Below are positions 5,540 to 56,719 of a DNA stretch of 64,000 bases, piece after piece (position 1 is the first letter of the stretch; each line of letters opens with the position of its first letter). Origin of the DNA: Phascolarctobacterium sp. GTDB taxonomy: Bacteria; Bacillota; Negativicutes; Acidaminococcales; Acidaminococcaceae. The notes below the pieces were generated by a model. The model did not search any database, was not told where the DNA came from, and saw nothing but the letters and a program-made list of their open reading frames with translations. Location of the stretch: assembly GCA_003150755.1 (NCBI GenBank), contig QAMT01000023.1, positions 85,474-149,473 on the forward strand. Reading direction: 5' to 3'. Made by a program: the position numbers and the translations under genes.

Positions 5540-6187
5540 ATGTCAAAATTAGTGCAGCTAGACGAAAACACACCGTCAATCAGATATTTATGCAAAAAAG
5601 ACAAGCGTTTTCAAAAAGTTTTTTCCATGATAGGCAGCATATCCTATGAACTTCAGGAAGATGGTTATTCTTTTTTGATTCATGAAATCATAGAACAAAT
5701 GCTTTCTGCAAAAGCCGCCAACGCTATATACGGCAGGTTGAAAAAACTTTGCGGCGGCTCTGTTTGTCCGGATATTATCAATTCGCTTTCTGATGAACAG
5801 ATTTTAAGTATCGGTACGTCAAGAGCAAAAGTCAAAGCAATCAGAAGTTTGACACAGGAAATAGAAAATGGCAATATTGTTTTTTCTGAATTTGATAATA
5901 TGACTGATGCCGCTGTGCTGCATACATTAACGCGCGTTCATGGGATAGGAATGTGGACGGCAAAAATGTACCTATTATTTGTGTTGGACAGGCAGGATAT
6001 ATTGCCCTTTGAGGATATCGCTTTTTTGCAAGGATATGGCTGGACTTATAAAACAGACGATTATTCGCCCGCAGCTGTCAAAAAGAAGTGCGGCAAATGG
6101 AAGCCGTATTCTTCTATTGCCGCAAGGTATATGTACCTGGCTGTCGATAAAGGATTAACCAAAAAGGAATTTCATCTTTTCAAATAA
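5540..6187 (+). CDS. DNA-3-methyladenine glycosylase II family (HhH-GPD, AlkA-like)
   Basis: HhH block VHGIGMWTAKMYLLF followed by an Asp-containing loop (FEDIAF). I trimmed the track ORF (5372) to the ATG at 5540, which has GGAAG about 10 nt upstream and begins MSKLVQLDENTPSIRYL. Confidence 0.7.
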   Translation: MSKLVQLDENTPSIRYLCKKDKRFQKVFSMIGSISYELQEDGYSFLIHEIIEQMLSAKAANAIYGRLKKLCGGSVCPDIINSLSDEQILSIGTSRAKVKAIRSLTQEIENGNIVFSEFDNMTDAAVLHTLTRVHGIGMWTAKMYLLFVLDRQDILPFEDIAFLQGYGWTYKTDDYSPAAVKKKCGKWKPYSSIAARYMYLAVDKGLTKKEFHLFK

Positions 6188-6239: not shown

Positions 6240-6315
6240 TGGTGGGCGCTAACGGGATCGAACCGCTGACATTCTGCTTGTAAGGCAGACGCTCTCCCAG
6301 CTGAGCTAAGCGCCC
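6240..6315 (-). tRNA. tRNA-Val (anticodon UAC)
   Basis: Reverse complement GGGCGCTTAGCTCAGCTGGGAGAGCGTCTGCCTTACAAGCAGAATGTCAGCGGTTCGATCCCGTTAGCGCCCACCA. Full cloverleaf, loop CTTACAA, encoded CCA. Confidence 0.95.
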
Positions 6316-6318
6316 GAA

Positions 6319-6393
6319 TGGTGACCGGTGGGGGAATCGAACCCCCGATACCGCCGTGAAAGGGCGGTGTCTTAACCGCTTGACCAACCGGCC
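6319..6393 (-). tRNA. tRNA-Glu (anticodon UUC)
   Basis: Reverse complement GGCCGGTTGGTCAAGCGGTTAAGACACCGCCCTTTCACGGCGGTATCGGGGGTTCGATTCCCCCACCGGTCACCA. Loop CTTTCAC, encoded CCA. Confidence 0.95.
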
Positions 6394-6396
6394 AGG

Positions 6397-6472
6397 TGGC
6401 TCCCCGAGTAGGACTCGAACCTACGACGCCCTGATTAACAGTCAGGTGTTCTACCGGCTGAACTATCGGGGA
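6397..6472 (-). tRNA. tRNA-Asn (anticodon GUU)
   Basis: Reverse complement TCCCCGATAGTTCAGCCGGTAGAACACCTGACTGTTAATCAGGGCGTCGTAGGTTCGAGTCCTACTCGGGGAGCCA. Loop CTGTTAA, encoded CCA. Confidence 0.95.
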
Positions 6473-21951: not shown

Positions 21952-24459
21952 TTACGGTTTTACAACGATATTGACCAGACGGCCCGGCACGCAAATAACC
22001 TTCACAATTTTTGCGGTATCAACGGTTTCTGCAATATGCGGTTCGGCAAGCGCCAGTTTTTCCAGTTCAGCCTTACCCGCATCGGCAGGCACAACCAGGC
22101 GGCCTCTTAATTTGCCGTTAACCTGCAAAGCAATTTCCACGCTGTCCACTTTCATGGCTTCATTATCATATTTCGGCCATTTTTCGTTGTGGATGCTGCC
22201 TTCTTCAGAAATTACACCGTGCCACAGTTCTTCCGTGATATGCGGAACAAACGGCGAAAGCAGTTTCAGCAGGTTGGAAATAACTTCAAAAATCAAGCCT
22301 GCATGCGGTGTTTTTTCAGCTTCTTTGTAAGCATACAAAGCGTTAACCAGTTCCATCATCGAGCTGATAGCAGTATTAAAGTTGAAGCGCTGTTCAATGT
22401 CGTCCGTTACCTTTTTAATGCTGGTATGCAGCACACGGCGCAGGTTTTTACCCGCTTCGTTCAGTTCAGCCGGGTCATACTGCGTAACCTTCTGCGCCAG
22501 CACATCCTGATAATGGTAAACAATACGCCATACCCTGCCGAGGAAACGGAACGAGCCTTCAACGCCCTGGTCGCTCCATTCCAGTTCTCTTTCAGGCGGT
22601 GCGGCAAACATAATAAACAATCTTGCCGTATCAGCGCCGTATTTGCCGATGATTTCTTCCGGCGATACAACATTGCCAAGGGATTTACTCATCTTAGCGC
22701 CATCTTTAATAACCATGCCCTGAGTCAGCAGGTTGGTGAACGGTTCTTTATAATCTACAAGGCCCGCGTCATGCAGCACCTTCATAAAGAAGCGGGAATA
22801 CAAAAGATGCAGGATTGCGTGTTCAATGCCGCCAATGTACTGGTCAACCGGGGACCAGTAATTTACTTTGGCTTTGCTGAACGGCGCGTCAGCATTTTTC
22901 GGGTCGGTATAACGCAGATAGTACCAGGAAGAACACAGGAAGGTGTCCATGGTATCGGTCTCGCGTTTTGCAGGCTTGCCGCATTTCGGGCAGGTGCAAT
23001 TTACAAAGCTTTCAGAGGTTGCCAGCGGCGATACGGCACCGGCATCGAATTTAACGTCTTCCGGCAGCATTACCGGCAGCTGGTCTTCCGGCACAAGCAC
23101 TTCGCCACAGTCCGGGCAGTAAATAACCGGAATCGGCGCGCCCCAATAGCGCTGGCGGCTGATAAGCCAGTCGCGCAGGCGGTAATTAACGCGGCGGTGG
23201 CCGATGCCCATTGCTTCGATTTTGTCCTTGATTGCTTCCATGCCTTCATGCAGCTCCATGCCGCTGAATTCACCGGAATTTACAAGCACGCCTTCTTTTT
23301 CCTCATAGGCGTCGGTCATATCTTCTAATTTAAGCTCTTTATCCTTGGGGTTAATTACAACAATTTTATCAATACCGTATTTACCGGCAAACATCCAGTC
23401 GCGGGAATCATGGGTAGGTACGCCCATAACAGCGCCCGTGCCATAATCGTAAAGTACATAGTTTGTAATCCAGATCTGCACTTTGCGTCCGGTCAGCGGA
23501 TGGATGCAGTAGCAGCCTGTAAACAGGCCTTCTTTTTCAGATTCGCTGGAAGTACGTTCAATATCGGACTGATTTCTTACGCGCTCGCAGAAAGCTTTGA
23601 TTTCTTCGGCTTTCGGGTTGTTTTCGCACAGTTTTTCAACCAGCGGATGCTCTGCGGCAAGTACCACAAAGGTAACGCCGTAAATCGTATCCGGGCGGGT
23701 AGTGTAAACAGGCACGCGCTCGCCAAGTTCCGGAATTTCAAAGCTGAATTCCAAACCTTCGCTGCGGCCAATCCAGTTGCGCTGCATAGTTTTAACGCGC
23801 TCAGGCCAGCCTTCCAGAAGGTCAAGGTCTTTCAGCAGGTCTTCGGCATAATCAGTAATTTTAAAGAACCACTGTTCCAGGTCTTTTTTTACAACTTCGT
23901 TATCGCAGCGCCAGCATTTGCCGTCGATAACCTGTTCGTTGGCAAGTACCGTGTTGCAGGTATTGCACCAGTTAACGGCAGATTTCTTTTTAACTGCCAG
24001 GCCGCGTTTATAAAACAGTTCAAAAAACCATTGCGTCCATTTATAATAATCGGGCTTGCAGGTAGTTACCTCGCGGTCCCAGTCATAGGAAAGGCCGAGT
24101 CGTTTCTGCTGGCGCGTCATGTTGGCAATGTTTTCCATCGTCCATTTTTTCGGCGGAATGCCGTGTTTGATAGCAGCATTTTCAGCAGGCATGCCGAAAG
24201 AGTCCCAGCCCATCGGATGCAGCACATTATAACCGTTCATCGTGCGGAAGCGCGCAACAACGTCGCCGATGGAATAGTTGCGCACATGGCCCATGTGCAG
24301 GTTGCCGGAAGGATACGGGAACATTTCCAGCACATAGGATTTCGGACGGCTGCTGTCCATTTCTGTTTTAAAGGTTTTGTTGTCTTCCCAGTATTTCTGC
24401 CATTTGGCTTCAATCTCATGGGGATTATACTTTTCTTGAATCATATTTTTCAACCTCAC
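21952..24459 (-). CDS. leuS: Leucyl-tRNA synthetase
   Basis: 835 aa. HIGH-type motif ([11 protein letters not shown]), KMSKS motif, CP1 editing domain length. Confidence 0.97.
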
Positions 24460-41600: not shown

Positions 41601-41677
41601 GACTCCGTAGCTCAGTTGGATAGAGCGTTTGACTACGAATCAAAAGGTCGCAGGTTCGAATCCTGCCGGGGCCACCA
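41601..41677 (+). tRNA. tRNA-Arg (anticodon ACG)
   Basis: GACTCCGTAGCTCAGTTGGATAGAGCGTTTGACTACGAATCAAAAGGTCGCAGGTTCGAATCCTGCCGGGGCCACCA. Loop CTACGAA, encoded CCA. The acceptor stem has an A2-C71 mismatch. Confidence 0.9.
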
Positions 41678-45968: not shown

Positions 45969-46739
45969 TTACTTGACTATTTCTTCAAGTTTGGCAAGGC
46001 TTTCTGCTACCATGCCATACTGATTAATTGCAGCGTATTCGCAAACCTGTGTAGCCTGCGGTGCATATTTTTTAAGAGCGCTGAAATATTCAGCCCAATA
46101 AATATTGCCGCTGCCTACCGGCAAATGGCTGTCTGCCGTACCGTCATTATCATGAATATGCACACCGACAAGCTTCGTATTTAAATCACGTAGCACATCG
46201 CTCAAATTCCAGCCGTTAACATGCGCATGACCGGTATCAAGCAGCGCTGCTGCCTGCGGAAAACGTTTAAAGAGCCCTAAATATTCCTCGTATTCAAACA
46301 ACAGCGTACCGGTAGTACGCAAGCCTACATTTTCAAGGACAACTGTCACACCGTATTTCTCAGCCAGTTTCAGCAGCTTTTCAATGCGCCCGCATACAAG
46401 TTCCTGCACCGCCAGTTTTTCTTCTGCCATGCGCCAGGCTTCGTTGCTGTGTACCACTACAAAGGCCGCATTGATTTTAGCTGCATACGCAAAAGTTTTT
46501 TCGTATACATCAAGATACGCCGTATCATTCGGGTCAGCAAGGTTTACTGCAACGCACGGGCCATGGATGCTGAAGCGGCGAGTTACACCGTCGCGTTCTT
46601 TTAAATCCTTCAAAATATAATCCCAATAATGGTCAGTACCGAATTCGTAAAAAATTTCAATGTCATACTGCATCGGTAAATTTTTTAAAAATGCTTTGCT
46701 AAAGCTGCCAAACGGCAAATCACTTACAGAAAATTTCAT
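45969..46739 (-). CDS. Sugar phosphate isomerase/epimerase (xylose-isomerase-like TIM barrel)
   Basis: 256 aa. AP-endonuclease-2/TIM-barrel pattern (VVHS, VVLEN, DTGHA, HIHDND). Confidence 0.7.
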   Translation of the reverse strand: MKFSVSDLPFGSFSKAFLKNLPMQYDIEIFYEFGTDHYWDYILKDLKERDGVTRRFSIHGPCVAVNLADPNDTAYLDVYEKTFAYAAKINAAFVVVHSNEAWRMAEEKLAVQELVCGRIEKLLKLAEKYGVTVVLENVGLRTTGTLLFEYEEYLGLFKRFPQAAALLDTGHAHVNGWNLSDVLRDLNTKLVGVHIHDNDGTADSHLPVGSGNIYWAEYFSALKKYAPQATQVCEYAAINQYGMVAESLAKLEEIVK

Positions 46740-47821
46740 TTTATAATCTCACCCTTTTGTACATAACCAATATTTGCTTTTGTTTCTGCATCAAACAGAC
46801 TTGCTTCATCCCAGTTGAAATCAAGGCTGATGTTGCCGCTTATTTCTTTACCAATGCCAGGCAGCGTAACAAAAATTGTTTCTCCATTAGCTTCAACAGT
46901 TAAAGTGCGCTGGTTGCCGGTATTTTCCTGATAACTTACGTTGCCCTTAATTTTACCGTTAGCAGAAGGAGTTAAATGCTCCGGCCTGATGCCGATGAGG
47001 ACATTATTGCGCCCTGCCAGTACCTTTTGCCAAAGTTCCGGAACGTCGCTGACTACATCGCCAATTTTCATTTTGCCGCTGCTGTAATAACCGGTAATGA
47101 TATTCATTGCAGGAGAACCAATAAAACCTGCTACAAAAGTATTTGCTGGATGATGATAAATCACGTCAGGAGTGCCGGCCTGCTGCAAAATGCCATCCCG
47201 CATTACAACAATACGGTTAGCAACCGTCATAGCTTCAATCTGGTCATGCGTTACATAAATCATCGTCGGTTTATAAATTTCGTGAATACGGACCAGTTCC
47301 GTCCTTGCCTGCTGACGGAGCTGCGCATCAAGATTGGAAAGAGGTTCATCCAGCAAAAAGTACGGAGATTGCTTAACAAGAGCCCTGCACAAAGCAACCC
47401 TTTGTTTCTGCCCGCCGCTGAGCTCTTTCGGTTTATGGTTTTCGTAGCCCTGCAAATTCAAAATTTTCAAGGCTTCCGTAGTACGTCTTTTTATCTCATC
47501 TTCCGGCAGTTTTTGAATCTTCAGCCCAAAGGTAATGTTATCCCATACGGAAAGATGCGGAAACAGCGCATAGCTTTGGAATACCATCGCCACATTGCGT
47601 TCTCCGGGCGGAACATCGTTAATGACCCTGCCGCCCATAATAAGCTCGCCGCTGGTAATTTCTTCCAACCCTGCAATCATACGCAAAGTTGTTGTTTTGC
47701 CGCAGCCGGAAGGCCCCAATAAAATAAGCCTTTCTCCTTCTTTTATTTCCAGATTCAGTGATTTTACAATTTTAGCGTCGCCGTAGGATTTGCAGACATT
47801 ATTGAAAACTATGCTATTCAT
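46736..47821 (-). CDS. Carbohydrate ABC transporter ATP-binding protein (MalK/UgpC/MsmK type)
   Basis: 361 aa. GPSGCGKTT, LSGGQKQRVAL, FLLDEPLSNLD and a C-terminal TOBE-like domain. Confidence 0.9.
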   Translation of the reverse strand: MNSIVFNNVCKSYGDAKIVKSLNLEIKEGERLILLGPSGCGKTTTLRMIAGLEEITSGELIMGGRVINDVPPGERNVAMVFQSYALFPHLSVWDNITFGLKIQKLPEDEIKRRTTEALKILNLQGYENHKPKELSGGQKQRVALCRALVKQSPYFLLDEPLSNLDAQLRQQARTELVRIHEIYKPTMIYVTHDQIEAMTVANRIVVMRDGILQQAGTPDVIYHHPANTFVAGFIGSPAMNIITGYYSSGKMKIGDVVSDVPELWQKVLAGRNNVLIGIRPEHLTPSANGKIKGNVSYQENTGNQRTLTVEANGETIFVTLPGIGKEISGNISLDFNWDEASLFDAETKANIGYVQKGEIIK

Positions 47822-47823
47822 TA

Positions 47824-48648
47824 TTAACCTTTAACCCCCGATTGCATAAATGTATTAAGGATAAATTTCTGGCAGAACACATACAGAACCAGCGGCGGCA
47901 AACTTGTCAGCACGGCAACAGCCATGGCAATGCCCCATTCGCTGCCGCCCTCGGCGCTGATAAACATTTGCAGCGCCAGAGGAAGGGTATACATATCCTT
48001 GTCCTGCAAAACAAGCAGCGGCCAGAAATATTCGTTCCACGAATTGATAAAGAACAAAATAGCTACTGCGATGACAGAAGGTTTAATCAATGGAAAAATT
48101 ACGCGGCGTAAAATTACAAACGGTTTAGCGCCGTCAAGAATTGCCGCCTCAAGCAGTGCTTTCGGAATACCACGCATTGTCTGACGCATTAGAAAAATAC
48201 CCATGCCATCGGCAAAAGCCGGAAGCATTACGCCGAGCGGATGATTTAAAAGATTCATCTTACTCATAAACAGATAGTTAGGCATAATCAGCACCGTAAC
48301 CGGAATAAAAAACGTCAGCAGCATGCTGTTGAAAATCGTTTCTTTGTATTTAAAGTCATAATAGATAAAGGCAAATGCCGCCAGAATACTGGTAATAACT
48401 TTCATGGCAGTAGTGCCTGCGGCGATGATAAAAGTATTGTAAATATAGGTCAGCAGCGGGAAATCTTCCAGCACTGTCGTATAGTTAGCCAAAGTTGGCG
48501 GAAACGGCAGCGGATTCAGCGTAGCCCTGAAAATCTGGTCCATATCTTTCAAAGAAGTGGATATCATAAAAACAATCGGCCACAGCTGAATAAAAACTGC
48601 AATTAAAAGCGGAATATGCCACAAATACTCTTTTTTATCAGTTTTCAT
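47824..48648 (-). CDS. Carbohydrate ABC transporter permease (CUT1 family, MalG/UgpE-like)
   Basis: 274 aa, 6 TM segments, EAA loop (LLEAAILDGAKPFVILRRVIFPL). Confidence 0.85.
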   Translation of the reverse strand: MKTDKKEYLWHIPLLIAVFIQLWPIVFMISTSLKDMDQIFRATLNPLPFPPTLANYTTVLEDFPLLTYIYNTFIIAAGTTAMKVITSILAAFAFIYYDFKYKETIFNSMLLTFFIPVTVLIMPNYLFMSKMNLLNHPLGVMLPAFADGMGIFLMRQTMRGIPKALLEAAILDGAKPFVILRRVIFPLIKPSVIAVAILFFINSWNEYFWPLLVLQDKDMYTLPLALQMFISAEGGSEWGIAMAVAVLTSLPPLVLYVFCQKFILNTFMQSGVKG

Positions 48649-49516
48649 AATATACCTTCTTCTCTAAATATTTAGTCCTGAATAGCAGGAACGCTATATA
48701 GCAAACCATTGTAATAATGGCAAAAGCAGCTGATTTACCGGTTTGGAAAAATACAAACGCATACTGGTAAATGATGTATACCAGATTTGAACTGCCCTGG
48801 TCAGGCCCGCCCTGCGTCAGCATATTTACCGGTACCAGCACATATTGAAGCCCGAATACCACTGTAATCGTAAAAACATAAATTGCAGTAGAAGATGTCA
48901 TCGGCACAATAATCTGCTTGAAAATCTGCCAGTTGCTGGCATTTTCCAGCTTGGCTGCTTCAATCATTTCTTTAGGAACAGCAAGCATGGCTGCAAGCAT
49001 TACAATAAGGTTATAACCAAAAACCTTCCAGCCAATAATAGTGCAGATAGCAAAAATTACAAGCCAGTTTTCTTTAAACCAGCGCGGCGATTCTATATCA
49101 AACCACGAAAGCACTATGCTCAGCGGACCTGCCAGCGGATTATAAATCCACAGGAACAAAATACTTGCAACCGCCAGAGATAATGTTGCAGGCATAAATA
49201 ACGTTGAACGGTAAAAGCCCTTACCGTGCTCAATTAAATGCCCAAGCACAAACGAGAACAGGTAGGGCAGCACAAAGTTAAGCACCAGCATAATTGCAAC
49301 AAATACAACAGTATTGATAAGTATTTTAACAAGTTCCTCGCTGCCTAAAACAGCGGTATAGTTTTCAAGGCCGACAAATTTCATTGTGGGGCTGACCATA
49401 TTCCAGCTGAAAAAGCTTAAATACAGATTTTGCAGCAGCGGCCAGTATGAAAACACTGCAAAAAAGAAAATGCTTGGCAGCAAAAATAAAAAGGCATGCC
49501 ATTTATTCTTTTCCAT
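48638..49516 (-). CDS. Carbohydrate ABC transporter permease (CUT1 family, MalF/UgpA-like)
   Basis: 292 aa, 6 TM segments, EAA loop (MIEAAKLENASNWQIFKQIIVP). Confidence 0.85.
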   Translation of the reverse strand: MEKNKWHAFLFLLPSIFFFAVFSYWPLLQNLYLSFFSWNMVSPTMKFVGLENYTAVLGSEELVKILINTVVFVAIMLVLNFVLPYLFSFVLGHLIEHGKGFYRSTLFMPATLSLAVASILFLWIYNPLAGPLSIVLSWFDIESPRWFKENWLVIFAICTIIGWKVFGYNLIVMLAAMLAVPKEMIEAAKLENASNWQIFKQIIVPMTSSTAIYVFTITVVFGLQYVLVPVNMLTQGGPDQGSSNLVYIIYQYAFVFFQTGKSAAFAIITMVCYIAFLLFRTKYLEKKVYYEN

Positions 49517-49540
49517 TTTTTCTTCTCCTTTAGTTAAAAA

Positions 49541-49569
49541 TCAGGCTGCCGCAGAAAGCAGCAGCCTGA
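49541..49569 (-). promoter_or_regulatory. Intercistronic stem-loop after the binding-protein gene (partial terminator or mRNA stabiliser)
   Basis: tcaggctgc-N11-gcagcctga followed on the minus strand by TTTTTAAC. It lies between the SBP stop and the first permease start. Confidence 0.45.
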
Positions 49570-49586
49570 AGTTTATCGTCCTGATA

Positions 49587-50897
49587 TTACATCAGTGCGT
49601 TAATTTTTTCTGCGGTTTCATGCAGAGCCTGCGCAGCAGATTCTTTGCCGCTCAGGATAATGTCGCGGGCATCAATGAGAAGCTGTTCAGCCTGAAGTCC
49701 GTTAGCACCAGGGAAACTTGCCCAGGGAACAAGGTTAGGCATTAAGGAAAGGGCAACCTGTACGTTTTTGTTGGTATCAACAAGTTTCTTAAAGCCGTTC
49801 GGGTCGTTTTCTACACCTTTGCGAGGAGGCAGATAGCCGGTGCCAGTGCTCCATTTCAAAAGAGCTTCAGGAGATTCCAAGTATTTGATAAATTCAACGG
49901 CAGCCTGTTTTTTAGCATCATCGGTAGAGAATACCATCAGGAAATTGCCGCCAGCCGGAACTTTAAGCTCTTTGCCTTCGAATACAGGGAACGGAGCAGC
50001 CATTACTTCAAAATTAGCACTCTTTTCAAAGTTAGCACGTTTGCCGATAGTGGTGCAAACCATACCGAGCTTGCCGCTGAGGTAAGCCTGGAAGCCTTCT
50101 TCGTTTGTAGCATGCAGACCGCTGCCATCTTTAACCATGTCAGCCAAAAGCTGGTATGCTTCCGCAGCTTCAGGAGTATCGAAGCCTGCTAAAGTTTTGC
50201 CGTCAACCTTTTTCAGCATGCTGCCGCCGTTGGATTCAATAATAGCCTGCTGGGTCCAGTTATCTGCATATTCCTGCATAAAGAAGCCCATGTTGCCGGT
50301 TTTTTCTTTAATCTGTTTGGCAGCGGCTTTAACTTCGTTCCAGGTTTTAGGCGGGTTAGCCGGGTCAAGGCCTGCTGCTTTAAAAATATCCGGGTTGTAA
50401 TAAAGTACCGGTACGCTAATAGAATACGGAACGCCAATCTGTTTTCCGTCGTCAGTTTGTGCCAAAGCCAATACATTAGGCAGGAAGTTATCTTTTAAGA
50501 AGTTAGGGTCTTTAGCGCCTTCAAATGCCTGATTGATGTCCTGATATTTCAGGTTTTCGGCAGCATAGTTAAGGAAAGACCAACCCATCTGGACTACGTC
50601 CGGATTTTTACCGGAAGCGATTGCTGCCTGAAGATTCTGGGTAAGGCCTTTATACATATCCGGATTATATTTTTCTACAACTTCAATATTCGGATGTTTT
50701 TCATTAAAATCTTTAACTAATTCTTTTACAGTTTGTCCGCCAAAGCTTTCAGAAGCAACATGCCAATATTCAATTTGTACTTTTTTGCCGCTGCCGGTAT
50801 CGGCAGATTTGGTGTCACTGCCGCAGCCTGCAAATACTGCTGCGCACATGGTAGCCAGTAAAACACCGGCAATTTTTTTCTTTAAGTTCATTTTCAT
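49587..50897 (-). CDS. Extracellular sugar-binding lipoprotein of the ABC transporter (SBP family 1)
   Basis: 436 aa. Lipobox VFAGC and SBP_bac_1-like sequence. Confidence 0.85.
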   Translation of the reverse strand: MKMNLKKKIAGVLLATMCAAVFAGCGSDTKSADTGSGKKVQIEYWHVASESFGGQTVKELVKDFNEKHPNIEVVEKYNPDMYKGLTQNLQAAIASGKNPDVVQMGWSFLNYAAENLKYQDINQAFEGAKDPNFLKDNFLPNVLALAQTDDGKQIGVPYSISVPVLYYNPDIFKAAGLDPANPPKTWNEVKAAAKQIKEKTGNMGFFMQEYADNWTQQAIIESNGGSMLKKVDGKTLAGFDTPEAAEAYQLLADMVKDGSGLHATNEEGFQAYLSGKLGMVCTTIGKRANFEKSANFEVMAAPFPVFEGKELKVPAGGNFLMVFSTDDAKKQAAVEFIKYLESPEALLKWSTGTGYLPPRKGVENDPNGFKKLVDTNKNVQVALSLMPNLVPWASFPGANGLQAEQLLIDARDIILSGKESAAQALHETAEKINALM

Positions 50898-51100
50898 ACC
50901 CTCCGTAAAATTATTGGTTGCCTGTATAATATCAAGCGAATTTAAAATGTAATATATGTAACAGATTAAATAAAAATAAAATAAATGTAGATTTCGTTAA
51001 GCAAAGGTAAAATTTGTAAAATTTTCTTTACAAAGCTATGTAAACAGACTGAAAATTTTATCACAAAATACTTTAAATGCCCTGCTTTTTCTCTTACTGC

Positions 51101-51149
51101 AATCAAAAATGCACCCCCAAAAGCTTTTTAAAAGCCTTTGAAGGTGCAT
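51101..51149 (-). terminator. Terminator after the TRAP operon; second copy of the repeated hairpin family
   Basis: atgcacccccaaaagcttttt-aaaa-gcctttgaaggtgcat imperfect hairpin followed on the minus strand by TTTTTGATT. Confidence 0.6.
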
Positions 51150-51183
51150 AGCAAAATTGCAAATTTAGTTTTAATTCAAGCCG

Positions 51184-52461
51184 TTATTTTAATACACTCG
51201 GCAGCCAGGTAGCAATTTCCGGGAAGAAGCAGAGGATAAGGATTTCTGCCGCCATAGCAAGGCCGAACGGCACAACGCCTTTGATAATATCCGTCATCCT
51301 GCTGTCCGGGCTGATGCCCTGCAATACAAACAAGTTCATGCCGACAGGAGGCGTAATCAGCGCCAGCTCCAAGTTTAACAGCATTACTACGTTAAACCAA
51401 ATTGGGTCAAAGCCAAGGCGCATAATCAGCGGGAACAGTATCGGCAGTGTAATAAAGATAATGGAAATGGATTCCAGAATGCAGCCGAGGAACAGCAGCA
51501 GAATGTTAATTGCCACAAATACTGCCCAGCGTCCCATGTCAAGCTCGGCAACGTATTCCGTAAGCGCCTGCGGTGCATTTAAAATCGTCAGTACAAAACC
51601 AAACAGGCTTGCGCCAATCATAATGGCAAAAATCATGCAGCTGGTCTGGATTGTATCGCGCAAAATTTCGGGTAAATCCTTAATTGTTAATGTTTTGTAA
51701 ACAAAGAAGGTTATAAACAGGCTGTACACCGTGCCGACACCGGCCGCTTCAGTAGGAGTAAAAGAACCGGTGTAAATGCCGCCGACGACTATAACCGGCA
51801 GCAGCAAGCCCCAAAATGATTTTTTCAGCGAGCTTACGCGCTCATCCCATGAAGCCGCTTCCTGCAAAGGCAAATTGCGCGAACTGTAAACAACAATAGC
51901 TATAAAGATAACTGTCAGCAGCACGCCAGGCACTACGCCGGACATAAACAGTTTTCCGATAGATTCATCGGTAATAGCGCCGTACAAAATCATCGGTATT
52001 GAAGGCGGAATCAAAATGCCCAGCGTACCGCCAGCGGCGACTGTACCTAAAACCAAATGGCGGCTGTAACCACGCGAAAGCATTTCCGGTATAGCGATAG
52101 AACCGATTGTTACGGCACACGCTACGGAAGAACCTGTAATTGCAGCAAAGATAGCGCAGGCAATAACCGTCGCCACGCCAAGCCCGCCCGGCAGATGGCG
52201 CAGCCATTTATTGGCAAGCTCAAACAAGTCGTTGCCAACCTTGCCGGTCAGCAAAATCTGGCTCATTAAAATATACATCGGCACTGCCGTTAAAACAAAA
52301 TCGTCCAGCGATTTATAACCGATAATAGGCAGCTGCGCCAGTGCGCCCTCGCCGCCCAAAAACAGCACCATACCGGCAACGCCCGAAAGCCCGAGCGCAA
52401 AGGCAACCGGCAATCCTGAAAATAATAACACCAGAAGGAGAACAGTAAACATTACAAGCAT
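51184..52461 (-). CDS. TRAP transporter large permease (DctM family)
   Basis: 425 aa, 12 or more TM segments, DctM-like sequence throughout. Confidence 0.9.
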   Translation of the reverse strand: MLVMFTVLLLVLLFSGLPVAFALGLSGVAGMVLFLGGEGALAQLPIIGYKSLDDFVLTAVPMYILMSQILLTGKVGNDLFELANKWLRHLPGGLGVATVIACAIFAAITGSSVACAVTIGSIAIPEMLSRGYSRHLVLGTVAAGGTLGILIPPSIPMILYGAITDESIGKLFMSGVVPGVLLTVIFIAIVVYSSRNLPLQEAASWDERVSSLKKSFWGLLLPVIVVGGIYTGSFTPTEAAGVGTVYSLFITFFVYKTLTIKDLPEILRDTIQTSCMIFAIMIGASLFGFVLTILNAPQALTEYVAELDMGRWAVFVAINILLLFLGCILESISIIFITLPILFPLIMRLGFDPIWFNVVMLLNLELALITPPVGMNLFVLQGISPDSRMTDIIKGVVPFGLAMAAEILILCFFPEIATWLPSVLK

Positions 52462-52462
52462 T

Positions 52463-52987
52463 TTATTTTACCTCCCCTTCAAAATTATTGGCAGCAATTT
52501 TGCTGATATCGTGCAAAAGCGTGCCGATTATCTGCAAAAGCAGCACAAACATGCCAACCGGCAAAGAAAGCTGCGGAATCCACAGCGGCGTGCTTAAAGT
52601 AGTAGGCGCGCAGTTATTGTATTCCAGCGAAAGCTGCATCATTTTCCACGCTTCTACTGTAAAAATAAAGCTGAAATAAATACCGGCAATAGAAGTCAGA
52701 ACCTCAATATAGCAGCGCGTTTTGGCTGATAAATGCGTCAGGATAATATCGACATGGATATGTTTTTTGCCTGCATACGCTACGCCCATGCCCAGAAAGC
52801 CGGCAATAATAATGCAGTAAGTAGAAATTTCCATAACCCATTCAGTCGGTGAGTTGAAAATGTTGCGGGCAACGATTTCATAAACAATCATAAAGCCTGT
52901 CAGCAAAATCAGCGCACCGGCAATAACACCGACCACATTGGTCAGCAGCGCTACAATTTTATCATAAACATTGATAAATGATTTCAC
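52463..52987 (-). CDS. TRAP transporter small permease (DctQ family)
   Basis: 174 aa, 4 TM segments, positioned between the DctP and DctM genes. Confidence 0.8.
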   Translation of the reverse strand: MKSFINVYDKIVALLTNVVGVIAGALILLTGFMIVYEIVARNIFNSPTEWVMEISTYCIIIAGFLGMGVAYAGKKHIHVDIILTHLSAKTRCYIEVLTSIAGIYFSFIFTVEAWKMMQLSLEYNNCAPTTLSTPLWIPQLSLPVGMFVLLLQIIGTLLHDISKIAANNFEGEVK

Positions 52988-53019
52988 GTTAACACTCTCA
53001 TTCCCTTAAAATTTAAGCC

Positions 53020-54036
53020 TCAGGATTTGGTTGCAATGTCGATAAGTTCTTGTCCCAAGGCGCCGTTTTCTTCAACAAACAAATCCCAAACGCTCTTGGT
53101 TGCCTGCTGCCATGCACCGATTTCGTTTTCGGGAACAACATAAACCTGCATGCCGTTTGCCTTCAAATCTTCAAGTGCTTTCAGGTCTTCTGCCTTCGCG
53201 TTGGCGCGGATATCGTTGCGTACTTCGTTTGCCGCATCATTCAAAGCTTTTTTCTGCGCATCGGAAAGCTTAGCATAGGATTTTTCATTTATCGTAAGTA
53301 AAAATTCCGGAGAAGCATGGTTGGTAACGGTTAAATATTTATGTACTTCATACATTTTGCGGTCGCGCATAGCGGTTGTACCGGAGGTCTGTCCGTCAAT
53401 CGTGCCGCGCTGAATAGCCATGTAAACTTCGCTGGAGCCCATGGTTGCAGAAGATGCACCCAAAGCCTTAATGGTTTCGGAAGAATATTTGCTGTAACCG
53501 CGGATTTTTAAGCCTTCAAAATCAGCCGGAGTTTTAACCTCGCGCAGGTTATTGGCAAACTGTACAAAGCCGTAATCTGCCCAAATCAGCGGGCGCACGC
53601 CTTTTTTCAAAAGCTCGCTGCCCAGTTTTTCGCCAATGCCGTTGTCAATCGCTTTATCTACCTTATCGTAATCGGGGAACAAAAACGGCACGTCAAATAC
53701 GTCCATGGCAGGCACAATGCTGGCCCAGCGCCCTACTGTGTTAAGCCCCATATCTACGCCGCCGGAAATAACAGCGTCATTCATATTTTTATCATTATAA
53801 AGCTGCCCGGCAGGATAAATGGTAACATCCAGGCTGCCGCCGGATTTTTCCGCAACTTTGGCTTTAAAACTGTCCATGGCCTTAACCAGCGGATGGCTGG
53901 ATGGCAGGGCCGTTGCCAGTTTTAAAGTAACCTGTCCGCCGGAAGCGGATTTTTCGCCGCCGCTGCCTCCGCAGCCTGCAACAAGCGTCATTGCTGCAAC
54001 AAGCGCCGCAGCCGTAAATTTTTTCCACATTTTCAT
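53020..54036 (-). CDS. TRAP transporter substrate-binding lipoprotein (DctP family)
   Basis: 338 aa. Lipobox LVAGC and DctP-like blocks (LKLATALPSSHP, NDKNM, FDVPFLF). Confidence 0.85.
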   Translation of the reverse strand: MKMWKKFTAAALVAAMTLVAGCGGSGGEKSASGGQVTLKLATALPSSHPLVKAMDSFKAKVAEKSGGSLDVTIYPAGQLYNDKNMNDAVISGGVDMGLNTVGRWASIVPAMDVFDVPFLFPDYDKVDKAIDNGIGEKLGSELLKKGVRPLIWADYGFVQFANNLREVKTPADFEGLKIRGYSKYSSETIKALGASSATMGSSEVYMAIQRGTIDGQTSGTTAMRDRKMYEVHKYLTVTNHASPEFLLTINEKSYAKLSDAQKKALNDAANEVRNDIRANAKAEDLKALEDLKANGMQVYVVPENEIGAWQQATKSVWDLFVEENGALGQELIDIATKS

Positions 54037-54054
54037 AATAAAACTTCCTTTCCC

Positions 54055-54918
54055 TTATTTATATTTTTTATCTAATTCATTGTATTTATCAAGACCGATA
54101 AAGCTGTTAAACTCGCTGAAATGCAGCATTTTATCATCACAGCTGATGGTCGTCCCTTCGCAGCGCAGCGTGCGCATTACCTCGCCAAAGGCTTTGGTAA
54201 TGGTGTACAGCGCCGTGCAGGGCCAAAATACAATGTCAAAACCCATGTTTTCAAGGTCTTTCGCTGTCAGTTCAGGCGTTTTGCCGCCCTCAATCATATT
54301 GGCAATCAAAACCGTATCCGGAAAGCTTGCCGCGATTTTTTCAAGTTCCTGCGCGCTTTGCGGGGCTTCAATAAACAAGGCTTCCGCTCCGCTGTCCAGA
54401 TACATTTTTCCGCGTTCAATGGCTGCGTCAAGCCCAAACACAGCCCTTGCATCAGTACGCGCAATCAAAAGCGTGCTTTCTTTTAGTTTGGCATCTGCCG
54501 CCGCGCGGATTTTTTTACCGTGCAGTTCAGCATCTACAACCTGTTTGCCTGCCATGTGCCCGCACCGTTTGGGCCACACCTGGTCCTCAAACAGCACGGC
54601 CGCCGCACCTGCCCATTCATATTCACGCAGTGTACGCTGCGCGCTCAGCGCATTGCCGTAACCCGTATCGCCGTCGGCAACCACGGGCACATCCACAGCC
54701 CTTGCAATCGTGCGCACGGCATCTGCCATCTCCGTCATCGAAAGATAACCCACATCCGGTTCGCCCAGGCGTGATGCCGCAACGGCATAACCGCCCATAA
54801 CGACGCCGTCAAAGCCTTCGGCAACGGCTATTTTAGCCGTCAACGCATCGTATACTCCGGGCAGCACAAGTATTTCTTTCTGCGCCAGCCTTTTACGTAA
54901 TTTTTCTCCCGGTTCCAT
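54055..54918 (-). CDS. Isocitrate lyase / PEP mutase superfamily enzyme with a KRCGH catalytic loop (methylisocitrate-lyase-like C-C lyase)
   Basis: 287 aa. LVLPGVYDALTA, ADGDTGYGN and WPKRCGHMAGKQVV; the catalytic Cys loop is present, as in ICL/PrpB-type lyases. Confidence 0.8.
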   Translation of the reverse strand: MEPGEKLRKRLAQKEILVLPGVYDALTAKIAVAEGFDGVVMGGYAVAASRLGEPDVGYLSMTEMADAVRTIARAVDVPVVADGDTGYGNALSAQRTLREYEWAGAAAVLFEDQVWPKRCGHMAGKQVVDAELHGKKIRAAADAKLKESTLLIARTDARAVFGLDAAIERGKMYLDSGAEALFIEAPQSAQELEKIAASFPDTVLIANMIEGGKTPELTAKDLENMGFDIVFWPCTALYTITKAFGEVMRTLRCEGTTISCDDKMLHFSEFNSFIGLDKYNELDKKYK

Positions 54919-54936
54919 TTTTGCGCCCCCTGTTTT

Positions 54937-55172
54937 GATAAATATAAAAGCCCCTACCGGAAATCCGGTAGGGGCGAAATACGCGGTACCACCCTACATT
55001 ATACTCTTTACCATAACGCCGGCCAGCGCTTTTTCCTACTTTGCTTTCAAAAAAAGGACTCCGGGGCGAGCTATGCGCTTACGCTTTACCGGCTTGCACC
55101 AACCGCCGGCTCTCTTAAAAACTTCAGCGTTTTATTCCCCTTCATAGTTTTTTGTTTAATAATTTGAGATGA
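54937..55172 (-). promoter_or_regulatory. T-box riboswitch leader (tRNA-sensing antiterminator) of the lyase-TRAP operon
   Basis: The minus-strand RNA contains an AG bulge (AAGAGAG), a distal stem-loop CCGGC-GGUUGGUGCAA-GCCGG, the T-box sequence AGGGUGGUACCGCG (plus-strand 54982-54995), an antiterminator pairing UAGGG/CCCUA with a UGGU bulge, and the terminator gcccctaccgg-attt-ccggtaggggc plus UUUUAUAUUU. Confidence 0.8.
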
Positions 55173-55176
55173 ATAC

Positions 55177-55205
55177 AGTATAGCAATCCTGTCCGTTCCT
55201 GTCAA
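55177..55205 (-). promoter_or_regulatory. Promoter of the T-box leader
   Basis: Minus strand reads TTGACA-17 nt-TATACT. Confidence 0.7.
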
Positions 55206-55391
55206 TACAAAAAATTAAAAACTTTCATTTTGTGATACACTATGCTATTTTTAGTGTATTTTATGTAAATATTTTACACTTTTTTAAAGATTACTCACAA
55301 TATTTTCACACAAAACAAGCCCCTAAAGTTGACACCGGCACACCGTTTTAGCTACAATATAAGTAATATATTAAGGAGGTTAACTAATCAA

Positions 55392-55946
55392 ATGAATAAA
55401 AATTTAATGTTGGTTATCGCAGCCCTTTTAGTTATTTTCGGGCTCGTAATGAGCGGCTACAACAATCTTGTAAGCATGAACGAAAATATCAACGGCAAAT
55501 GGTCGCAGATTGAAAATCAGCTGCAGCGCAGAAATGATTTAATCCCGAACCTTGTAAACACTGTTAAAGGCTATGCCGCCCACGAAAGCGATGTATTTAA
55601 AGCTGTTGCAGACGCACGTGCCAAACTCGGCGGAGCTAAAACCGTTGCCGAAGCCAGCCAGGCTGACGGCGAGCTGAGCAGTGCCCTGAGCCGCCTTTTA
55701 ATGGTTGCCGAAAACTATCCGCAGCTTAAAGCTAACACCAATTTTACGCAATTGCAGGATGAACTTGCCGGAACGGAAAACCGCATTGCCGTATCCCGCC
55801 AGGATTACAACAACGCCGTGCAGGAATTCAACGCCAGCATCAAACAATTCCCGACCGTTATTTATGCCGGCATGCTTGGCTTTACCCAGCGTGATTATTT
55901 TGAAGTGCCCGAAAGCGCCAAAGCTGTGCCGCAGGTACAATTTTAA
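55392..55946 (+). CDS. LemA family protein
   Basis: N-terminal TM, then NNLVSMNENINGKWSQIENQLQRRNDLIPNLV, typical of LemA. Start moved to the ATG at 55392 downstream of SD AAGGAGG. Confidence 0.85.
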   Translation: MNKNLMLVIAALLVIFGLVMSGYNNLVSMNENINGKWSQIENQLQRRNDLIPNLVNTVKGYAAHESDVFKAVADARAKLGGAKTVAEASQADGELSSALSRLLMVAENYPQLKANTNFTQLQDELAGTENRIAVSRQDYNNAVQEFNASIKQFPTVIYAGMLGFTQRDYFEVPESAKAVPQVQF

Positions 55947-55969
55947 TATGCGTTAAGGAAGCTTAAACG

Positions 55970-56719
55970 ATGATTAAGCATGTTTTACTCCTGCTGGTGG
56001 TGCTGCTGCAAACCTTCTGCGCCGCCGCAGGGCTGGAAGCAGCGGAGATACCGCCAAAACCGCAGGCAGGCACCAATATTTATGTGCAGGACTATGCGGA
56101 TGTAATCTCACCTGCTTCTGAAAAAATAATTTATTCGCTCGGACGCGAGCTGGATGCCAAAACAACAGCACAAGTAGCCGTTTTGACCGTGCCGACGCTG
56201 GACGGTGAACCGATTGAAAGCTATGCGCTTAACGTGCTGCGCAGCTGGGGCATCGGCAGCAAGGATAAAAACAACGGCGTGCTGATTGTAGTTGCCACGC
56301 AGGACAGGCAAAGCCGCATCGAAGTAGGCTACGGGCTTGAAGGCGCACTGCCTGACGGTTTGACCGGACGCATACAGGACCAGACCATGCTGCCGTTCTT
56401 CCGCGAAGGGCAATATGATAAAGGCATTGTCAATGGTTATGCAGCAACAGCTGCTACCGTAGCACAGGAATATAACGTCAAGCTTGAAGGCGTAAGTTAT
56501 AACCCGCCTGCACAAAAGCAGCAGGAAGACAGCCTGCCGCTGTGGGCAGAACTTTTGCTCGGCGCAGCAGTTGTAGTATTACTAATTGTTGATAACCTGT
56601 TCTTCGGTGGCTTTATCACCCGCATGCTCATCTTCTCACTGTTCCGCGGTGGACGCGGAGGCGGCGGTGGATTTGGAGGAGGCAGCGGCGGTGGCGGCGG
56701 CTCATCCCGAAGATGGTGA
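55970..56719 (+). CDS. TPM-domain (YgcG-like) membrane protein with a Gly-rich C-terminal tail
   Basis: 249 aa. Signal/TM, TPM block (YVQDYADVIS..QVAVLTVPTL), TM, and tail GGRGGGGGFGGGSGGGGGSSRRW. LemA-TPM pairing is a common arrangement. Confidence 0.8.
   Translation: MIKHVLLLLVVLLQTFCAAAGLEAAEIPPKPQAGTNIYVQDYADVISPASEKIIYSLGRELDAKTTAQVAVLTVPTLDGEPIESYALNVLRSWGIGSKDKNNGVLIVVATQDRQSRIEVGYGLEGALPDGLTGRIQDQTMLPFFREGQYDKGIVNGYAATAATVAQEYNVKLEGVSYNPPAQKQQEDSLPLWAELLLGAAVVVLLIVDNLFFGGFITRMLIFSLFRGGRGGGGGFGGGSGGGGGSSRRW

Follow-up and report, generated by a model that had tools for sequence, protein, structure and literature searches.

A Leu-type T-box leader in front of a lyase and TRAP transporter operon of Phascolarctobacterium, and its putative place in branched-chain amino acid supply

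The leader and the operon that it precedes

The stretch of DNA analysed here, 64,000 nucleotides of a Phascolarctobacterium sp. genome (contig QAMT01000023.1; called the window below), carries on its minus strand a T-box leader in front of the operon lyase-dctP-dctQ-dctM (54918-51184). The first gene encodes a carbon-carbon lyase of the isocitrate lyase/phosphoenolpyruvate (ICL/PEP) mutase family. The other three encode the subunits of a TRAP transporter, all of them present together and all scoring above the cut-offs of their family models. A first-pass annotation, made by reading the sequence, had described these genes as a KRCGH-loop lyase of the ICL/PEP mutase family plus a TRAP system, and the matches to PF13714 and to the DctP, DctQ and DctM models bear this description out. 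T-boxes normally govern the genes of aminoacyl-tRNA synthetases, of amino acid biosynthesis and of amino acid permeases. We propose that the leader responds to tRNA-Leu and that the lyase and the transporter belong to a set of T-box regulated genes that serve the supply of valine and leucine.

A scan of the whole window against Rfam 15 yielded a single T-box match, to RF00230, which covers the complete model (positions 1-219 of 219) with 109.4 bits and an E-value of 2.9e-23, the gathering score being 93; the Infernal search that the first-pass annotation had recommended was thus positive. The individual elements which that annotation had picked out by eye are likewise present. These are the TTGACA-17-TATACT promoter on the minus strand (11/12, with a TG extension), the AGAGAG bulge and distal loop of Stem I, and a T-box sequence with a UGGU-bulged antiterminator set against a strong terminator. 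The promoter is the best-scoring promoter-like site across 49000-56500, and a homologous TTGACA...TATAAT promoter has been kept in three related loci (L105, L170 and L081; loci outside the window are denoted by L and a number). The antiterminator consists of two short helices around the 7-nt bulge UGGUACC. Because the segment CGCCCCUA is common to both structures, antiterminator and terminator are mutually exclusive, and the calculated energies differ widely between them (Table 1).

Conservation, specifier codon and predicted switching

A scan of a genome collection with an alignment of the lyase, extended to further lineages by exact-protein look-ups, placed the closest relatives of the lyase in the Negativicutes. 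The order lyase-dctPQM is conserved in L001, L002, L003 and L004, each time with a T-box directly upstream (93.9, 82.8, 101.8 and 87.7 bits to RF00230, respectively). The same arrangement was found in six further lineages (L084, L086, L088, L091, L092 and L093), in which the T-box scores 80-104 bits and reads CUC. Across the lineages with a conserved leader the lyase is 63-99% identical to that of the window. The cassette follows a LemA gene in the window, lies between the genes of RNase J and BipA in L084 and L086, and comes after S-adenosylmethionine decarboxylase in L081. Since it occupies such different genomic neighbourhoods, it appears that the leader travels together with its cargo.

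In L165 a T-box followed by dctPQM, lacking the lyase, is found just upstream of BipA, which is the very position that the complete T-box-lyase-dctPQM cassette has in L084 and L086. In the latter two the RNase J gene lies upstream, a side on which the L165 contig is truncated. The two forms at one site suggest that the lyase has been gained or lost behind a homologous leader. Homologues of the lyase with about 50% identity also adjoin DctP, DctQ and DctM genes in Desulfovibrio (L008, 6001-9716) and in the Synergistaceae (L009, 3148-7745, with two tandem lyase paralogues). In these two loci no T-box was detected, either at the gathering score or by the core pattern, which suggests that the linkage of lyase and TRAP transporter is older than its control by a T-box. 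As a separate observation, a second T-box lies just downstream of dctM in L081 (11182-11431) and L082 (10894-11144). It scores 72-75 bits, below the gathering score, its specifier is apparently UGC (Cys), and it precedes an amino acid ABC transporter (ABC_tran/SBP_bac_3/BPD_transp_1).

The covariance-model alignment places CUC, a leucine codon, at the specifier position of the window leader, with G after it; the hand fold of the first-pass annotation had arrived at the same codon. The comparison of orthologous loci, also proposed there, returned CUC in 11 leaders and GUC in one lineage. In the 11 leaders (the window, L001-L004, L084, L086, L088 and L091-L093) CUC is followed by a purine and stands beside the closing helix. 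The annotation had offered GCU (Ala) as an alternative, one register upstream, from which the operon would sense starvation for alanine, a member of the pyruvate family. GCU followed by C can indeed be read within AGCUCG, in the window alone, and UGGU suits the A73 of tRNA-Ala as well. The two bases that precede CUC, however, vary among the orthologous leaders (AG, UU, UA, AC, CU and others), so that GCU is absent where they read UU, UA, AC or CU, whereas CUC and the purine after it are conserved. The alanine register is therefore excluded for practical purposes.

RNAalifold, run on 12 leaders (alignment A2), recovered Stem I, Stem II and the terminator. For 29 of the 52 consensus pairs, one or more sequences differ on both sides and still pair. 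Covariation within Stem I is seen at pairs 24/110, 25/109 and 61-66/78-83, and compensatory changes in the terminator at alignment columns 241/263, 242/262 and 245/259. The T-box sequence, including UGGU, is invariant in all 12 leaders. An additional helix returned by the program pairs CGUUA with the T-box sequence, both strands of which are invariant.

The model columns of Stem III are deleted in the window leader (54997-55013) and in most of the orthologous leaders (alignment columns ~186-212), and where they are deleted a near-invariant linker, AGAGUAUAAUG, is all that separates CGUUA from the T-box sequence. Two leaders, that of L004 and that of a leuA gene (L117), still carry a Stem III hairpin, which precedes this linker. 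In T-box structures that have been solved, Stem III belongs to the discriminator domain. The loss of Stem III together with the linker was considered as a trait specific to this operon, and this was rejected, as linker and core also occur in liv, ilv and leu leaders.

The family match and the covariation suggest that the riboswitch works according to the established T-box model. Transcription would begin at the TTGACA/TATACT promoter, the CUC specifier in Stem I would read the anticodon of the tRNA, and the distal loop and AG bulge would dock the tRNA elbow. The 3' ACCA end of an uncharged tRNA would then pair with UGGU in the antiterminator bulge and stabilise the weak antiterminator over the much stronger terminator, allowing read-through into lyase-dctP-dctQ-dctM. 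A charged tRNA-Leu would be unable to stabilise the antiterminator, and transcription would stop at 54950-54940. An acceptor end of the form A73-CCA, which bacterial tRNA-Leu and tRNA-Val have, is the pairing partner of UGGU.

Table 1. Features of the leader and the operon, and the leuS gene of the same window
Feature	Position	Strand	Basis or detail
Promoter, sigma-70 type	TTGACA 55205-55200; TATACT 55182-55177	minus	17-nt spacer, TG extension; consensus scan, 11/12
T-box leader (Stem I, Stem II, IIA/B, antiterminator)	54967..55154	minus	RF00230
Stem I with GA/K-turn base (AUGA...GGAG) and GGGG/CCCC helix	55148-55058	minus	covariance-model alignment
AGAGAG bulge of Stem I	55115-55110	minus	covariance-model alignment
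Distal loop of Stem I, GGUUGGUGCAA	55104-55094	minus	covariance-model alignment
Specifier CUC (Leu), then G at 55067, then CCCC strand of the GGGG/CCCC helix	55070-55068	minus	covariance-model alignment
Stem II (GAA...AGUA S-turn) and IIA/B region with conserved CGUUA at its end	55014..55057	minus	
T-box sequence UAGGGUGGUACCGCG, with UGGU	54996-54982	minus	
Antiterminator	54996-54969	minus	-9.3 kcal/mol, ((((((.......(((.....)))))))))
Intrinsic terminator GCCCCUACCGG/CCGGUAGGGGC, 11 bp, then U-run	stem 54975-54950, with U-run to 54940	minus	-23.8 kcal/mol
Ribosome-binding site AGGGGG	54931-54926	minus	
ICL/PEP-mutase-family C-C lyase, 287 aa	54918-54055, ATG at 54918	minus	PF13714 1.3e-44; PF00463 2.7e-12
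DctP solute-binding protein, 338 aa, lipoprotein-type	54036-53020	minus	PF03480 6.9e-78; TIGR00787 204.4 bits, cut-off 175
DctQ small membrane subunit	52987-52463	minus	PF04290 1.5e-27, 96.5 bits, cut-off 28.3
DctM large membrane subunit	52461-51184	minus	PF06808 5.8e-108; TIGR00786 411.5 bits, cut-off 268
Operon-end terminator, 19-bp hairpin and T-run	51109..51149	minus	consensus scan
leuS	21952-24459		TIGR00396, 1146 bits

The window also contains leuS, for which the first-pass annotation had noted the lack of a T-box; this holds, as the 156-nt spacer upstream of the gene gave no T-box match even at E<=1. No branched-chain amino acid (BCAA) genes are present among the ten large open reading frames of the window that were annotated. 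Just downstream of the terminator of the lyase-TRAP operon lies a sugar-type ABC operon (46736-50897, minus strand), whose four genes were recognised by eye from their translations as those of a binding protein, an ATPase and two permeases. A separate terminator follows the binding-protein gene (49569-49541). Elsewhere in the window are a minus-strand tRNA cluster, Asn(GTT)-Glu(TTC)-Val(TAC), at 6240-6472, and a lone tRNA-Arg(ACG) at 41601-41677.

A proposed Val/Leu T-box regulon and the possible role of the lyase and the transporter

The context of related leaders connects the operon to the branched-chain amino acids. Metagenome contigs were scanned for the core plus linker GAGTAYAATRYAGGGTGGTACCGCG, which gave 80 loci, and the first downstream genes were classified by eye from cluster representatives. 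Among these were 26 livH-like permeases, with an Ile specifier, and 19 livJ-like binding proteins. Other downstream genes were ilvC, ilvN, leuA, an aminotransferase and a membrane protein, and the specifiers in the set were ATC, CTC, GTC or TTC. The leader of the leuA gene (L117) scores 118 bits to RF00230. As the same T-box clade controls livJ/H, ilvC, ilvN and leuA, the lyase-TRAP operon would belong to a BCAA T-box regulon.

Within this clade the specifier changes between leucine and valine, and the components of the operon occur separately. In the lineage of L081, L082 and L083, whose lyase is 70% identical to that of the window, the leader of the cassette reads GUC-G (Val) beside a GAAG/CUUC helix. 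A Leu T-box (CUC) stands directly before dctPQM, with no lyase, in L105, L160, L165 and L170, where DctP is 67-77% identical to that of the window. A Val T-box (GUC) precedes a lone, monocistronic lyase of about 56% identity in nine or ten metagenome loci and in Dialister sp. UBA1703 (L005). The switch between Leu and Val points to a precursor that the two amino acids share, pyruvate or 2-oxoisovalerate, and the modular occurrence suggests that each component is helpful by itself when leucine or valine is short. In some of the Val leaders of lone lyases (L123, 9600-9760; L155; probably L005, after 3083) a second module follows the first terminator. It comprises an antiterminator, AAGAGUGGUACCGCGCCAAAGCGCCUCUU, and a terminator hairpin with U-run, and since it has no second Stem I or Stem II, it would add a second termination decision, in succession, to a single tRNA-reading domain.

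Two further contexts point in the same direction. In L094, 48 nt separate a 70%-identical lyase gene, which has no T-box, from a true ilvD downstream of it (TIGR00110, 630 bits against a cut-off of 618). In L004 (Negativicutes bacterium SKW2) the Leu T-box of the lyase-TRAP cassette (5703-5917) is preceded by a ykkC/guanidine-I-like aptamer (5545-5645, 48.5 bits against a gathering score of 63), followed by what by eye is its own terminator-like hairpin and U-run. Of the BCAA leaders with a riboswitch for guanosine tetraphosphate (ppGpp; ykkC subtype 2a), about 40% are reported to combine it with a Leu T-box in tandem (PMC6003355, PMC9481103), and the layout of L004 appears to match this published AND-gate of ppGpp riboswitch and Leu T-box. 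The exchange of the Leu for the Val specifier, the adjacency to ilvD, the ppGpp-type tandem and the liv/ilv/leu T-box clade all support, at the level of sequence, a link of the operon to Val/Leu supply.

The lyase itself is identical in sequence to PWM76531.1 of a Phascolarctobacterium sp. metagenome-assembled genome. Its best match in the PDB is the petal death protein (PDP) of carnation (1zlp; E 8e-71, 46% identity over 274 residues). It carries the KRCGH catalytic loop, DGDTGYGN and NMIEGGKTP, and among 20 orthologues WPKRCGHM, DGDTGYGN and NMIEGGKTP are invariant. The highest-scoring NCBIfam model is prpB, although the lyase remains below the PrpB equivalog cut-offs (TIGR02317, 280.6 versus 354.4; NF008455, 214.8 versus 353). 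It also stays below those for carboxy-PEP mutase (225.1 versus 420), PEP mutase (116.1 versus 319.6) and phosphonopyruvate hydrolase (109.5 versus 374.4). We therefore classify it, from its sequence, as a probable PDP-like C-C lyase of the ICL/PEP mutase superfamily. A retained Cys loop in this superfamily goes together with lyase chemistry at C2-C3, which releases a 2-oxo acid and a carboxylic acid, and because the loop is retained here the label "oxaloacetate decarboxylase" of public records is doubtful. The petal death protein reportedly cleaves (2R)-2-alkylmalates and oxaloacetate.

Lyases that are 45-51% identical to that of the window (L010-L079) are found in very many genomes of the Nitrosopumilales and Nitrososphaerales, and also in the Binatia, Methylomirabilota, Nitrospirota and others. 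The family is thus widespread, and we know of no physiological role that has been assigned to it. The Pfam domains encoded around distant homologues (L004-L012) include a sigma-54 PrpR-type activator, an MFS transporter, a CoA-transferase and others. These neighbours offered no hint of a pathway, and several of the reading frames are probably spurious.

The nearest solved relatives of DctP are 4P47 (the best match), 4NQ8, 4PDH and 4P9K (E 1e-45 to 1e-36), a group of structures that are apo or contain pantoate or erythronate and in which Arg152, Arg173 and Asn213 contact the carboxylate (PMC11668362). Compared with this group, the DctP of the window keeps the carboxylate-clamping Arg173, as Arg179. 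Relative to 4P47 it has Val158 in place of Arg152 and a serine in place of both Tyr196 and Asn213, so that three of the four usual binding-site residues have changed. The T-box-linked DctP of L160 has the same valine and the same serine at the position of Asn213, and a glycine at that of Tyr196. These substitutions suggest a binding pocket that is larger and less polar than that of the pantoate and erythronate binders.

Together, the lyase and the TRAP transporter would both raise the amount of a 2-oxo acid precursor of Val and Leu which, judged from the context, may be pyruvate or 2-oxoisovalerate/2-oxoisocaproate. The transporter would take up a small hydroxy- or oxo-carboxylate, or the 2-alkylmalate-type acid itself. 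As a best guess, the lyase would split such an acid at C2-C3 into a 2-oxo acid (pyruvate or 2-oxoisovalerate) and acetate. For gut bacteria such as Phascolarctobacterium and those of the Dialister type, which subsist on succinate, access to pyruvate is limited. That the PDP-like lyase and the TRAP transporter form a previously unrecognised route to Val/Leu 2-oxo acid precursors in asaccharolytic gut Negativicutes, by salvage and cleavage or by the reverse condensation, is a tentative idea that we hold to be possible and no more.

Several observations weigh against the proposed function and against a standard T-box. The window leader lacks Stem III, and the S-turn consensus of its Specifier Loop (AGUA...GAA) is poorly matched. 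No gene for tRNA-Leu is present in the 64-kb window. Relatives of the lyase occur without a T-box, the closest of them in L089 and L090 and distant ones, within the L005-L012 set, in Desulfovibrio, Synergistaceae and archaea, which shows that the family also exists outside BCAA contexts. As each of the two components is found independently, lyase and transporter need not act on the same molecule. Finally, we know of no plausible 2-alkylmalate substrate in the environment.

The independence of the two components can be carried further, to a reading in which the TRAP transporter takes up 2,3-dihydroxyisovalerate or a branched 2-oxo or 2-hydroxy acid for direct entry into the pathway, and the lyase produces pyruvate out of a metabolite from within the cell. 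The TRAP transporter and the lyase each occur alone behind homologous T-boxes, the solved relatives of DctP bind small hydroxy-monocarboxylates, the exchanges of Arg152 for Val, Tyr196 for Ser and Asn213 for Ser would enlarge its pocket, and the lyase adjoins ilvD in L094. Most loci of the Acidaminococcaceae, on the other hand, have the two tightly linked, and they are neighbours in Desulfovibrio and Synergistaceae too, where no T-box was detected; this suggests a shared substrate, and we regard such a division of labour as possible but doubtful. The lyase might instead run in reverse and condense free acetate with 2-oxoisovalerate, imported by the TRAP transporter, to 2-isopropylmalate, which would amount to a CoA-independent bypass of LeuA. 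The Leu specifier and the presence of a leuA leader in the same T-box clade fit such a bypass. The petal death protein is said to accept (2R)-2-alkylmalates, and natural (2S)-2-isopropylmalate matches these in spatial configuration. Reactions of the ICL family are readily reversible, and acetate is abundant in the colon. Condensation leaves the clade of lone lyases with a Val specifier unexplained, however, and we consider it unlikely.

Less probable still is that the names in public records are right, i.e. that the operon encodes a methylisocitrate lyase, carboxy-PEP mutase or oxaloacetate decarboxylase with a C4-dicarboxylate TRAP transporter for the energy metabolism of succinate and propionate, and that the T-box is incidental or decaying. 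Phascolarctobacterium does live on succinate, and prpB is the best NCBIfam model for the lyase, but every equivalog, prpB included, falls short of its cut-off. NMIEGGKTP is a motif of the PDP type and not of the PrpB type, and the retained catalytic Cys argues against a decarboxylase of the PA4872 type. The changes in the binding site of DctP also speak against the public names, and the leader has been conserved, with covariation, across lineages whose specifier stays Leu or Val. Our preferred reading, to which we assign a probability of about 0.85, is that the leader is a class-I, transcription-attenuating T-box for tRNA-Leu (anticodon GAG) and that its cargo belongs to a Val/Leu T-box regulon of gut Negativicutes and would raise the supply of a 2-oxo acid precursor of these amino acids.

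Comparison with known systems

The riboswitch appears to be an ordinary member of RF00230 and adds little beyond a natural variant without Stem III; what seems to be new for a T-box is the set of genes that it controls. For uncharacterised genes, T-box specifiers are among the few hints at a physiological role that can be had from sequence alone. Here, specifier and context point the bacterial PDP-like lyases and a TRAP binding protein of the pantoate/erythronate group toward BCAA supply. If this is true, names that are wrongly in wide use (methylisocitrate lyase, carboxy-PEP mutase and oxaloacetate decarboxylase for the enzyme, C4-dicarboxylate transporter for the TRAP system) would be corrected, a link in nutrient cross-feeding in the gut would be added, and homologues in many phyla would gain a function that can be tested. 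The tentative route to 2-oxo acid precursors, in either of its two versions, would be the first physiological role of a lyase family that the Thaumarchaeota and other phyla also widely possess, and its transporter the first TRAP system dedicated to BCAA supply.

Neither a TRAP system nor an ICL-family enzyme is mentioned as T-box cargo in PMC2494555 and PMC3766115. A literature search returned no T-box survey that lists TRAP/DctP or ICL-family/methylisocitrate lyase cargo, an earlier mention being possible in Vitreschak 2008, Gutierrez-Preciado 2009 and Vetting 2015. The search also returned no report that joins the petal death protein to isopropylmalate, or Phascolarctobacterium to BCAA or isopropylmalate.

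The leader is most similar to the Leu T-boxes of BCAA genes in the Firmicutes, such as the ilv-leu and leuS leaders of B. subtilis. It has the same attenuation mechanism as predicted, the CUC specifier followed by a purine, the AG bulge and the distal loop, Stem II and the IIA/B region, the 14-nt T-box with UGGU and a terminator that overlaps the antiterminator. It differs from them in the AGAGUAUAAUG linker that replaces Stem III and in its weak Specifier-Loop S-turn, and its cargo is a PDP-like lyase and a TRAP transporter instead of a synthetase or ilv/leu genes. The tandem of ppGpp riboswitch and Leu T-box (Sherlock et al. 2018, PMC6003355) has a probable counterpart in the layout of the L004 cassette, whereas the leader of the window has no such aptamer.

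Among transporters, yvbW is preceded by a Leu T-box, and specifiers have been used to predict the substrates of T-box regulated transporters (Wels et al. 2008, PMC2494555). Systems of the yvbW type share with the window operon a Leu T-box before an uptake system, in which the specifier hints at the amino acid that the cargo serves. The T-box regulated transporters in PMC2494555, however, are permeases and ABC systems for the amino acid itself, unlike the TRAP transporter described here. The petal death protein (1zlp), finally, has WPK(R/K)CGHM, DGDTG and NMIEGGKTP in common with the lyase, but it is a plant enzyme without a transporter partner, whereas the bacterial clade appears to be tied to the regulation of valine and leucine.

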